NCBI GenBank assembly: GCA_964016885.1
Contig: OZ024743.1
Coordinates: 73,842,001-73,906,000 of the forward strand
DNA: 64,000 nucleotides
Source: Eledone cirrhosa
Taxonomy: Eukaryota
Direction: 5' to 3'
Shown: positions 24,840 to 64,000 of the stretch, in pieces
How the letters are laid out: the number at the start of each line of letters is the position of its first letter
Numbering within the stretch: the first letter of the stretch is position 1
The notes under the pieces: generated by a model
What the model was told of the DNA's origin: nothing
Database searches by the model: none
What the model saw: only the letters and a program-made list of their open reading frames with translations
Translations under genes and position numbers: made by a program

Positions 24840-25775
24840 GTGTTTACTCCAGGGACATGCCTTTGTTGGCATTTATCACAACGATATTTGCTACATACAA
24901 TATTTTGTCTATTACCTTTGATGGTCCGGTCAGTATGTACAGGAAAGTCACATACAGTTGTTACAGTTTCTCCTTCAGTTACAGCCTGAGGGTGATGATT
25001 GTACCACTTGTCAGCAGCTTTGATTTTATAATTGTTTCTACTTTTGACACAAGGCCTGCACTTATTCCAGTGTATCACTGGTACTTTATTTTATCGGCCC
25101 CGTAAGGATGAAAGGCAAAGTTAACCTCGGCGGGATTTAAACTCAGATCATAAAGGTAATGCTGTCATATTATTAACGCCTGTAGATATTGGCCAACTCT
25201 ATCATGCCTTGATTTATCCTCTACTGGTGCTAAAACTTTACATCCTGATATTAAGTGGTCCACTGTTTCAATCTCATCAGTGCATAACCAGCAATTATGA
25301 TTTTCTCCATTTCTCATCACATTGGCCTAGTATTTCCGTATCAATGAGCTTTGATCTTGGGCAGATAAAATGAAGCCTTTGCTCTCTGCTTATATCCCAG
25401 ACCTACGTAGCCACTCATTGGGATGCTTCTGGTCAACATCAGCTAGTTTGCTACGGGCCACATATTTGCCAGACAGATGTTACTGCGCCCACTTTGATGC
25501 TAATTGTTCTTGCCCTTTTACTGTTGCCATTAATTTTCTGATCTTAGCAGCAATAGTTGTAACAGTTCTGTCAGTCTGTCCAACATGGATATCAATCATA
25601 AGATTGGTAGCATATTGTTTGTTCTACTTCAACATAAAATGAAGCTTCTTACTTCTCTCTCATGTTTTTCAACGAGTTTCAGCATCCAGTCGTCTGTTGT
25701 TTCAAGGTATTTAGCCAGTATAATTGTGGTGGCCTTGTAAGTTCAAATTGGATAAGGCCACGGCCCCCTTCAGTT
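24840..25775 (-). mobile_element. Old degenerate RLE (Dong-like) fragment, interrupted by a SINE at ~25025-25155
   Basis: Minus strand gives EGGRGLIQFEL near 25770, E..GFILSAQDQSS near 25360, and DFPVHTDRTIKGNRQNIV near 24900-24950. Confidence 0.7.
25025..25155 (-). mobile_element. S1 SINE, 5'-truncated
   Basis: Reverse complement of the S1 central domain and tail. Confidence 0.8.
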
Positions 25776-25952
25776 GTTGTTGTTATTGTTGTTGTTGTTG
25801 TTGTTGTTGTTGTTCTTCTTCTTCTTCTTCTTCTTCTTCTTCTTCTTCTTCTTCTTCTTCTTCTTATTATTATTATTATTATTATTATTATTATTATTAT
25901 TATTATTATTATTATTATTATTATTATTATTATTATTATTATTATTGTTGTT
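25773..25952. repeat. Compound microsatellite (GTT)n(CTT)n(ATT)n
   Basis: Directly visible. Confidence 0.95.
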
Positions 25953-27211
25953 ATTCCTTGAATCTCAGTCATTGATGTTGGTTAACTGGAAAGTCCGTTG
26001 GAATGAATATCAAGCCACTACCTGCAGCTTCAGATATTCAGGACGTATCGGAGGGTTCTTGCTGTTCCAAGCAAGCATGCCTTTTGAAGCGTTCCAAAAA
26101 GCGTGAAGGGGCCGATTTTCTTTAACCATCCCTGGAAACTTTTGGAGATAGTCCCCAGTGCGCCTATGACAATCGGGATCACTTTGACTTCATGGCAGTT
26201 CCAAATCCTTTTCACCTCCCACTTTAGGTCCTGGTATCGGTTAATTTTCTCCCTCTCCTTCTCTTGCACTCTCGTGTCGAAAGGGCAGGCCACATCCACA
26301 ATCAGACACGATCTTTTTTCTTTGTCCACAACCACCAGGTCAGGTCTATTGTGTTCCAGTTTTTTGTCCGTCTGTATCCTAAAATCCCACAGCACCTTCA
26401 CCTGATTGTTCTCCATCACCGCCTCTGGCCTATGCTCATACCATTTCTCAGAATGTGGTAAATTGTTTACTTTGCACAGGTGCCAGTGGATCACCCTGCC
26501 CATCACATCGTGTCTCCAGCCCTTATAGTGGGTCTGGGCTAGGTGTTTACACTCGGACACAATGTGAGCCACAGTCTCCTCTCTCTCTCCACAGATCATG
26601 CACAGTGGGCTAGCCTCCTCCTTGTAAATATGGTGCTTCAACCACTTCGTTTTGAGGGCCTGCTCCTGCGCAGCCATTAGCATTCCTTCTGTAGCCTTTT
26701 TGAGGTCTCCTCTTCTCAACCAGTTCCATGTCTGTGGATCTCTAAATTCAGTTTTCTCAAAGAAGGTACTATGAAGGGATTTTCCCTTAAGGCTGCTCTT
26801 CCTCCTTGATGTTATTTCCTCCTTGGACATCCCCTGGCCTACTGTCCCCTCCTTCAGTACAGTTCTGAGCATTGGCTCCTTACTATAGGTCACGTATTTG
26901 TATAGGTTGTTTTTCTCCATCTGAACACAGTCCTCTATGCTGATAAGACCTCTTCCACCCTCAGATCTCCTTAGGTAGAGTCTATCGACATCACTCCTCT
27001 TGTGGAACATGTTGTAGATAGTCAATAGCTTCCTAGTCTTCCTATCCATTTCTTTTTGTTCAGCAACATTCCATCTCAGAATTCCCGCACTGTACCTAAT
27101 AATAGACACAGCTCGGGAATTTACTGCGCTTATGGCATTTCTGCTGTTCAGATGTGATTTCAATACGCTCCTTACTCTCCGAATGTATTCAGTTCTTAAC
27201 AATTCCTTCAT
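25953..27211 (-). mobile_element. 5'-truncated Dong/R4-like RLE LINE (family Dong-B) in (TAA)n
   Basis: Uninterrupted reading frame to 26030: EGGRGL, CMIC..HIVSEC, RHD, RPD..DVACP..K..Y; TAA repeats on both sides. Confidence 0.92.
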
Positions 27212-27226
27212 TATTATTATTATTAT

Positions 27227-62302: not shown

Positions 62303-62423
62303 TTGCTGGGAACAGCAAGAACCCTCCGATACGTCCTGAATATCTGAGGCTTCAGGTAGTGGCTTGATATTCATTTCAACAAACTTTCCAGTTAACTAAC
62401 ATCAATGACTGAGACTCAAAGAG
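62303..62423 (+). mobile_element. Dong-B 3' end fragment
   Basis: Reverse complement of 25953-26075; (TAA)n flanks. Confidence 0.88.
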
Positions 62424-62501
62424 TAATAACAATAATAATAATAATAATAATAATAATAATAATAATAATAATAATAATAATAATAATAATAATAATAATA
62501 A

Positions 62502-62822
62502 AGAGAGTGCAAGAGATGGAGAGGGAGAAAATTAACCGATACCAGGACTTAAAGTGGGAGGTATAAAGGATTTGGAACTGCCATGAAGTCAAAGTGGTCC
62601 CGATTGTCATAGGCGCACTAGGTACTATCTCAACAAGTTTTCAGGGATGGTTAAAGAAAATTGGCCCCTTCACGCTTTTTGGAACGCTTGAAAAGGCATG
62701 CTTGCTGGGAACAGCAAGAACCCTCCGATACGTCCTGAATATCTGAGGCTGCAGGTAGTGGCTTGATATTCATTTCAACAAACTTTCCAGTTAACTAACA
62801 TCAATGACTGAGACTCAAAGAG
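62502..62822 (+). mobile_element. Dong-B 3' fragment
   Basis: RVQEMEREKINRYQDLKWEV..; same 3' UTR; (TAA)n flanks. Confidence 0.9.
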
Positions 62823-64000
62823 TAATAACAACAACAACAATAATAATAATAATAATAATAATAATAATAATAATAATAATAATAATAATAATAATAATAA
62901 TAATAATAATAATAGGGAAGAAGACGCACCTGGTGGATAGAAGGTCATGAAATCGTTCCCGTAAGATTTTGATTTTTAACATATTTAAATCAATTGTGAA
63001 ATAACAATTCTTAGTACAAATGATACATAAAGCACCAGACTCAAGTCTCAGAAAAATTCGGATCCATAATATATTGTTATATCGCTCAAATATTCAATTT
63101 TGTATTATACATTTTATATTCAAAAAAGAAAATGGTTATACATGGAAGAAAACCCCCTCTGTCTACACTATATAGAACAGCCAAATAACAGCAATTTCAC
63201 CAACACCACAAACTAGATACACCACCTATCCCATCACTCCTCTGTGTACACTAAATACAACAGCCAGATAACGGCAATTTCACCACCACCACCACCAATC
63301 CCAGCATAATAATTATAACTACTATTATTATTGTCTCAAGTTTTTACAAAATGTTTAATTCCAATATTAAGAAAAATATGTCAACACATATATTAAACAT
63401 ACGCGACTAACCGCATAGATTCACCGATCAAACAAACTACAGTCTATTCAACAAAATTCAGTAACGACAACGCCATCAGTATAGTCACCGCCGCCACCAC
63501 TCCATCCATCATTGCTACCACTATCCTATCACCGCCGCCACCACTCCTTCATTGCTACCACCGCTATTCCCCCATTACCTTCTGTTAACTTACGAAAGGG
63601 GAAGGTGGCGGTATCACTAGACAATATTAATAAACAAAATGACTAAATAGCTAAATAGCTAAAGATAATTTCACCACCAGCACCACCACCACTACCACGC
63701 TAAAAACTCTGGTCAAGTTGCTTCAACCTCTATTTCTACTTCAACTTCAACACCATCACTACAGTACTACGATCACATCACCACCACCACTGCCTCATTA
63801 TCGCTACCGCCGCTATTCTCTCCCACTACCTCCTACTATGTACTACTAGCACAGCACCACCACCACCACCACTGCCTCATTATCACTACTGCCGCTATTC
63901 TCTCCCACTACCTCCTGATACATCGTAGTGTCCCCACTAACAGAGGAAGGCATCAAAATATATAAATAGACTGAATTGATGACCCGGTCAAAATCAAAAA

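Follow-up and report, generated by a model that had tools for sequence, protein, structure and literature searches.

Dong-like and Tx1-like LINEs share TAA/ATT repeats in opposite orientations in the genome of Eledone cirrhosa

The stretch of DNA analyzed here (hereafter the window) comprises 64,000 nucleotides (nt), positions 73,842,001 to 73,906,000 of contig OZ024743.1, from the 3.0-Gb genome of the octopod Eledone cirrhosa. It holds two stacks of long interspersed nuclear elements (LINEs) of two kinds, viz. Dong-like elements, which carry a restriction-like endonuclease (RLE), and Tx1-like elements, which carry an apurinic/apyrimidinic-type endonuclease (APE), inserted among runs of a trinucleotide repeat that reads TTA on the forward strand in the left stack and TAA in the right stack. 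The stack map was built from self-alignment, from the raw sequence, and from annotation against single natural full-length copies. Two Dong families (DongA and DongB, with a protein identity of ~45-50%) and at least two Tx1 families (Tx1a and Tx1b, with ~70-75% DNA identity near the 3' end) were distinguished, and the components of the two stacks are listed below (ORF, open reading frame; RT, reverse transcriptase; UTR, untranslated region; aa, amino acid).

25773-25955, no strand: compound microsatellite (GTT)(TTC)(TTA)n at the left edge of the left stack, DongB tail included
25956-27210, minus strand: 5'-truncated DongB, 99% to a full-length genomic copy, with CCHC, RHD and PD..D RLE motifs
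27226-29151, minus strand: 5'-truncated DongA
29152-29208, no strand: (TTA)19, head-to-head junction of DongA and Tx1a
29209-35014, plus strand: full-length Tx1a with ORF1 and an APE-RT ORF2, frames broken
35015-35065, no strand: (TTA)17, tail-to-tail junction of Tx1a and DongA
35066-36489, minus strand: 5'-truncated DongA
36553-37715, plus strand: older, 5'-truncated Tx1b-like copy, ~86% to Tx1b, its short ATT tail grading into (TTG)n
45178-45422, plus strand: short 3' fragment of DongA between TAA runs
45447-46041, plus strand: 5'-truncated DongA
46072-55421, minus strand: full-length Tx1b, interrupted by a DNA transposon
55470-60217, minus strand: Tx1a with both ends present and an internal deletion of ~0.9 kb
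60218-60298, no strand: (TAA)27, head-to-head junction of Tx1a and DongA
60299-62284, plus strand: 5'-truncated DongA with a 613-aa open frame (RT)
62303-62419, plus strand: short 3' fragment of DongB
62502-62818, plus strand: short 3' fragment of DongB
62914-64000, plus strand: 5' UTR of a further, 13th element; this DongB is full-length and runs on beyond the window

All eight Dong-like copies of the two stacks read TAA in their own sense and all four Tx1-like copies read TTA, as a preliminary description of this DNA had stated for the same 12 insertions. That description had identified all 12 LINEs correctly, but it omitted a hAT-like transposon inside the right Tx1b and a short interspersed nuclear element (SINE) with the polarity of Tx1, both described below. 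The 13th element (locus L201), whose end lies in a TAA run ~2.8 kb beyond the window, obeys the same rule. Because each family has a fixed polarity, the agreement of 12 out of 12 insertions is two facts and not 12 independent ones, and a genome-wide test was therefore made.

The self-alignment contains long inverted matches between the two stacks, as would be expected if the right stack were an inverted duplicate of the left one or an artefact of assembly. However, the left and right Tx1a copies are only 89.6% identical, whereas the left copy is 91.4-95.1% identical to 18 other genomic copies (18 of 29 copies could be aligned over 1 kb), so that the pair is less alike than either is to typical copies. 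The truncation points of the Dong copies, their order and the content of the stacks also differ, and similar structures are present on many chromosomes, including a Dong/Tx1/Dong stack in one of six random 10-kb stretches (L216). Inverted duplication was rejected on these grounds, and we consider the probability of either duplication or artefact to be negligible.

The genome-wide comparison used the top similarity matches as loci, except where counts of exact patterns are given. An ATT-type run precedes the full-length heads of both Tx1 families in every case viewed (30/30 for Tx1a and 30/30 for Tx1b, by eye), and perfect runs of three or more units are found before 27 and 25 of these heads, respectively. 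An exact-pattern count identified at least 1803 Tx1a heads in the genome, a lower bound because the pattern passes over heads whose flank has C at position 18. ATTATT stands directly upstream and in register at 1738 heads; the first 100 heads by position are all flanked by repeats. For Dong, a TAA run lies upstream of 98 of the 119 truncated 5' ends and a TTA run upstream of only three, against a background of 0.2-1%, and all 30 DongA 3' ends analyzed are at TAA. A run of at least three units lies beside only 0.2-0.3% of random positions (six random 10-kb stretches). After de-duplication, 515 of the 522 element ends beside a run conform to the rule and seven break it (query ends included). Flanks and orientations are thus not random across the genome, as the earlier claim demanded.

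The same rule governs the arrangement of neighbors across a single run. Dong-Tx1 pairs are opposed in 44 of 47 cases (31 head-to-head and 13 tail-to-tail), whereas pairs from one side of the system share the same sense (61/61 for Dong-Dong, 28/28 for Tx1-Tx1, 33/34 for SINE-Tx1 and 10/10 for SINE-SINE). Genome-wide, a Tx1 tail lies no more than 36 bp away from 225 of the ~2660 exact DongA tails, and no same-sense junction of a DongA tail with a Tx1a head was found in the genome, with a control pattern that fits the Tx1a head only. The head-to-head and tail-to-tail arrays previously described for the window are hence a recurrent feature of this genome. The polarity rule is real and genome-wide, but the earlier wording "strictly opposite" is slightly too strong, as seven of 522 ends and three of 47 Dong-Tx1 pairs break it. 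At one rule-breaking junction (L131:1791-2412), a DongB with an inverted segment lies beside a Tx1b head.

These flanks bear directly on whether the runs are merely tails of the elements and the stacks passive pile-ups in tolerated AT-rich DNA. DongB tails do contain inherited AAC units, and LINEs other than Dong, e.g., the I element, have TAA tails as well (PMC3747384). However, the 5' flanks of both groups are repeats with family-specific polarity (98/119 truncated Dong copies and 1738 Tx1a heads), and passive stacking would not yield 44 of 47 opposed pairs, or 225 tail-to-tail against zero same-sense junctions. A pure element-tail model was rejected on polarity and on the repeat 5' flanks, and we regard it as highly improbable.

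The Dong-like elements have the features of single-ORF LINEs of the RLE type. The DongB copy at locus L204 has one open frame of 1141 residues in which RVT_1 was the only Pfam match above cutoff, no APE match being found in that search. Two Dong-like proteins (P0002 and P0003) carry C-terminal CCHC, RHD and PD..D..K motifs, which were aligned to the RLE region of R2. As far as tested, the sequence evidence supports the label of RLE-type single-ORF LINE. A divergent Myb/SANT domain is an N-terminal feature of the R4/Dong clade; near the N-terminus of the present elements, a tryptophan-led helical motif is visible by eye, with no Pfam match. DongA and DongB share a 5' UTR head of ~540 bp with 92% identity (62914-63400; L154:2006-2900; L204:2355-2900), which suggests a swap of 5' UTRs between the two families, and an inherited SINE tail of 44 bp lies in the DongA 5' UTR in sense orientation. 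A search for a hepatitis delta virus (HDV)-like ribozyme at the Dong and Tx1 heads yielded no Rfam match, no fold signal and no match to a descriptor that had no positive control.

The Tx1-like elements encode a second ORF with an endonuclease domain (Exo_endo_phos, E 1e-13) and a reverse transcriptase domain (RVT_1, E 1e-28), the best match of which among solved structures is L1 ORF2p. A separate ORF1 with a CCHC zinc knuckle is a feature of the Tx1 group; ORF1 of the focal lineage (P0006) has one CCHC knuckle by eye and no Pfam match. The full-length left Tx1a copy starts with TTGG and ends in AATAAA plus ~8 nt, with no poly(A). The nearest named relative of the protein is from Argonauta hians (69% identity over 99% of the query), and the Tx1a head is also present in contigs of four other organisms. 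Trees were built with reference elements from metagenomes whose U2 or 5S flanks were identified with Rfam (by eye for L248), the L1 and outgroup labels being assigned by us. Each of the three trees gives the focal lineage a separate, well-supported branch. In a quick tree under a mixture model (29 of 51 rows), it groups with the U2-flanked and 5S-flanked elements on one branch, apart from the vertebrate-L1-like rows (Shimodaira-Hasegawa-like approximate likelihood ratio test, SH-aLRT, 92, a quick-tree value on an unstarred branch). The simpler-model trees have an unresolved backbone, and one of them placed the 5S group with the vertebrate-L1-like rows. Similarity scores of the focal lineage are higher against Tx1-type rows (295-398 bits) than against L1-like rows (213-260 bits), and it is ~30% identical to the other Tx1-type elements sampled. 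The domains bear out the original labels as far as an RLE single-ORF and an APE, L1-group LINE are concerned, and the latter is probably Tx1-like.

A repeat scan of 80 metagenome loci, mostly relatives at ~30% identity in a set that does not include the relatives at 42-46%, found no ATT-run flanks, and no TC- or TTC-flanked reference elements were identified among the same 80 loci. Tx1-type elements were seen on the metagenome contigs L229, L236, L241, L222 and L227 (U2-flanked, Keno-like) and L233 and L243 (5S-flanked); L222, L227 and L229 also contain, several hundred bases into the contig, a U2-like match that lies upstream of the RT match.

A SINE of ~185 bp, whose tail is matched exactly at no fewer than 145,078 genomic sites, shares the polarity of Tx1, and its tail resembles the Tx1 tail over only ~25 nt. 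A- and B-box-like motifs, such as a tRNA-derived head would carry, are visible by eye, with no ARAGORN or Rfam match. Its copies in the window are as follows.

26-128, 19105-19340, 23061-23230, 25033-25156 and 38819-38959: SINE copies
51598-51691, minus strand: SINE copy whose target duplication is clean, non-repeat and 17 bp long, with ATTA as its first letters

Among the SINE copies analyzed, 82 of 85 3' junctions start with ATTA; in 19 of the 85, a non-repeat duplication of the target (11-20 bp) starts from this ATTA, with a T before it in 15. Similar duplications were seen by eye in ~5 truncated Tx1 copies (L053, L099, L107, L113 and L115). Since these non-repeat duplications start at the 3' junction, the ATT found there in such copies belongs to the target DNA. 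We consider this SINE, from its sequence features, to be a candidate passenger of the Tx1 family.

The observations above are, in our view, probably explained by two unrelated LINE groups that share TAA/ATT repeats in fixed opposition because their first nicks fall on different strands, in stacks that renew themselves. The first nicks of the two families would lie on different strands and prime reverse transcription there, in keeping with the established process of target-primed reverse transcription. Under this process, and because the duplications start T|ATTA, we infer that the Tx1 APE would nick the TAA-reading strand at TAAT/A, an analogue of the L1 first-nick site TTTT/AA. Within a pure run, the Tx1 duplication would add ~5-6 units and leave repeat on both sides, i.e., a regenerated landing site. 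The sense of Dong is TAA, and its RLE would therefore make the first nick on the TTA-reading strand, where the element's own (UAA/CAA)n RNA tail could pair. The Tx1 machinery would also copy the SINE, with looser specificity. Each insertion would likely leave repeat on both of its sides, so that the stacks keep growing. This mechanism is largely the one known for site-specific LINEs, and selfish safe-harbor targeting, with the stacks as its by-product, is a better reading than a host function. The opposite-strand nicks that had been proposed earlier are strongly indicated on the Tx1/SINE side by the target-site duplications, but less directly for Dong. The proposed regeneration of landing pads fares similarly, in that repeats lie on both flanks and duplications are seen on the Tx1/SINE side, whereas the Dong tail is partly element-encoded.

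A number of observations weigh against this shared-repeat mechanism. The SINE lies largely outside microsatellites (87 of the first 100 tails begin with ATTA and five have four ATT units, by eye), about ATTAT is enough for its site, and no more than 18 of the 28 Dong-SINE pairs are opposed, at least six of the 10 exceptions being one SINE piece inherited in the DongA 5' UTR. Only 14 of 44 truncated Tx1 5' ends, a class that includes later breaks and old copies, have an ATT run, and only 15 of 30 3' ends of the older Tx1b have three or more perfect units. No non-repeat target duplication was found in 106 Dong copies, apart from one possible case by eye (L172), and regeneration on the Dong side may therefore come from the tail and not from duplication. 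Inherited AAC variants occur in 32 of 36 young DongB tails, which are thus partly element-encoded. Lastly, at the rule-breaking junction L165:8190-8838 an ATT run connects a Tx1a head with internal sequence of a DongB in the same sense, which fits a 5' run borne by the element. The alternative that had been named at the outset, of element-encoded tails with non-repeat 5' flanks, is largely refuted by the repeat 5' flanks, but the AAC variants and the truncated Tx1 ends retain part of it.

Several of these points would also fit a Tx1 enzyme that reads only the 5-6 bp of T/ATTAT, with long runs around full-length copies that the element itself brings or makes (from an AUU leader and tail on its RNA, or by slippage) and with polarity still fixed; such an enzyme would have no true specificity for microsatellites. 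The loose SINE sites, the 14 of 44 truncated Tx1 ends and the L165 junction speak for it. None of the 160 full-length heads viewed lies beside unique sequence, despite the imperfect-site duplications in SINE and truncated copies, and 5' runs exceed 3' runs (medians of 12 versus 6.5 and 6 versus 2.5 units, from different copy sets). However, the abutment of Tx1 and Dong (at least 225 of ~2660 DongA tails) is far above the expectation from dispersal, and the sequences past the 5' runs are mostly other members of the same guild, which is most simply explained if existing runs are targeted. We therefore consider an enzyme specific for T/ATTAT alone unlikely, though a serious competitor. Given the SINE and truncated-Tx1 results, the nearly constant location of full-length copies in long runs is not explained by a short nick motif alone; under the shared-repeat mechanism, their preference would likely need pairing with the repeat at the 5' junction besides the short nick motif.

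The preliminary description had further suggested that the opposed stacks could yield double-stranded RNA or PIWI-interacting RNA (piRNA). In a wider form of this idea, they would also be sources of antisense RNA, and read-through from one family would silence the other. The geometry of the 31 head-to-head and 13 tail-to-tail pairs sampled is what speaks for this, and transcription through a stack is plausible given that Bombyx Dong can cleave itself in vitro out of a co-transcript with upstream TAA repeats (PMC3774820). However, the orientation is fully explained with no RNA function and most stacked copies are truncated or broken. The neighbors are also unrelated in sequence, and therefore would form no hairpin, any effect being limited to antisense in trans by read-through. 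We regard such a role for the stacks as rather improbable.

Two further features of the window are associated with the same elements but lie outside the main finding.

17660-19340, plus strand: third small stack, made up of the 3' part of an old Tx1b-like copy and, after it, two SINE copies, all in the same sense with short ATT runs between them
49094-52585, no strand: hAT-like insertion in the right Tx1b, its inverted ends 14 bp and its target duplication 8 bp long, outside the microsatellite system

The hAT-like insertion has a weak match to DUF4371 (E 0.0026, below cutoff) and itself holds a SINE copy. ATT runs at the ends of stacks (25773-25955 and 37716-37740; L106, L113, L120 and L168) often grade into GTT, TTC, TTG or GTA, which suggests that compound microsatellites are seeded by these elements. 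An RT-like minus-strand fragment (YADD, by eye) at 44700-45130 directly adjoins the left end of the right stack, and the seed site of that stack may have come from, or lain beside, a LINE of another kind. Other RT-bearing LINE fragments (RVT_1 matches) are present at 233-2141 and 11938-13397, with no associated TAA runs. The window also contains a minisatellite at 19899-22682 (35-bp unit, ~79 copies, strong C skew) and long nested inverted repeats or palindromes (fold-back-like or resembling miniature inverted-repeat transposable elements, MITEs) on AT/AC simple repeats at 4090-11154, 39547-40404 and 42871-43546.

Taken further, these results raise the possibility, which we put forward tentatively, that a hitherto undescribed octopod Tx1 lineage targets (ATT)n and drives a SINE of more than 145,000 copies, and that together with Dong it constitutes a self-feeding guild which makes much of the AAT microsatellite and transposable-element stack content; the same enzyme would be strict for the full-length LINE and loose for the SINE, and opposed neighbors may silence each other by read-through antisense RNA. 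If so, it could be tested directly whether a LINE owes its target specificity to the nick motif or to the pairing of its ends. The strict behavior of full-length copies against the loose behavior of SINE and truncated copies provides a natural test of target choice by a site-specific LINE. The work likely adds (ATT)n as a new target of the Tx1 group, and it indicates that a single interstitial microsatellite is a point of convergence for RLE and APE retrotransposons, which enter it from opposite strands and do so at thousands of sites. It also offers a concrete mechanism for the abundance of AAT repeats and of nested LINE stacks, and a candidate partner LINE for one of the most abundant SINEs of the genome.

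Dong elements (R4 clade) have been described from Bombyx, Anopheles, Biomphalaria and Darwinula (PMC3812793, PMC7998251, PMC3774820), and their insertion in (TAA)n is known from insects, molluscs, cnidarians and an ostracod (PMC3812793, PMC7998251). TAA repeats lie upstream of Dong in sense orientation, and Bombyx Dong self-cleaves in vitro at its 5' end from a co-transcript with these repeats (PMC3774820). The elements described here share with known Dong the single ORF with RT, CCHC and RLE and the (TAA)n target, and nothing essential differs. In octopus repeat studies, Dong-R4 and L1-Tx1 are abundant or recently active, targets being unmentioned in the text available (PMC13282606, PMC8967140), and for Octopus vulgaris both are named among the recently active elements (PMC13282606). 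Within the Tx1 group, Kibi inserts in (TC)n, Koshi in (TTC)n and crocodilian Tx1 elements in (TTCC)n or (TTTC)n, and SINEU, mobilized by Tx1-Mar, has a weaker target preference (PMC4494074). These are, like the present elements, microsatellite-specific Tx1-group LINEs with a SINE partner of weaker preference, but the targets of Kibi and Koshi are TC and TTC, whereas the flanks of the focal lineage are (ATT)n. An (ATT)n-targeting Tx1, or co-targeting by Dong and Tx1, was not found in full-text searches of the literature, a scope without Repbase, Dfam, most subscription papers and the supplements and Fig. 3 target labels of PMC4494074, which could list ATT- or TAA-targeting Tx1 elements. The available portions of PMC3124438, PMC5786205, PMC3747384, PMC5035012 and PMC4758252 likewise contain no precedent.

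The closest parallels involve two LINEs on a single target. Keno (Tx1, APE) and Utopia (RLE) converge on one site in the U2 small nuclear RNA (snRNA) gene (PMC4640811), and thus similarly combine an APE-type Tx1 element and an RLE element on the same target. However, their 3' flanks are identical (same orientation), the target is a low-copy RNA gene, and no self-renewing microsatellite is involved. Some HERO families also target microsatellites (PMC4640811). TRAS and SART, both of the R1 clade, insert in the telomeric (TTAGG)n of Bombyx in opposite directions (PMC7265360, PMC10088271). They resemble the present system in that a short tandem repeat is shared by two LINE families, which enter it in opposite directions and form arrays, and also in that the endonuclease sets the site, two to three repeat units being enough. 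They are unlike it in that both have an APE, belong to one clade and are telomeric, whereas here an RLE and an APE group occupy an interstitial trinucleotide at thousands of dispersed sites. Because TRAS and SART are both APE elements, the polarity is not a property of RLE versus APE. An (ATT)n-targeting HERO family may also exist. Each part of the arrangement described here therefore has a precedent, the combination being the part that was not found in the literature searched, as far as the texts available extend; what is likely new is the (ATT)n target for Tx1, the sharing of an interstitial microsatellite by RLE and APE elements from opposite strands, and the candidate SINE partner.

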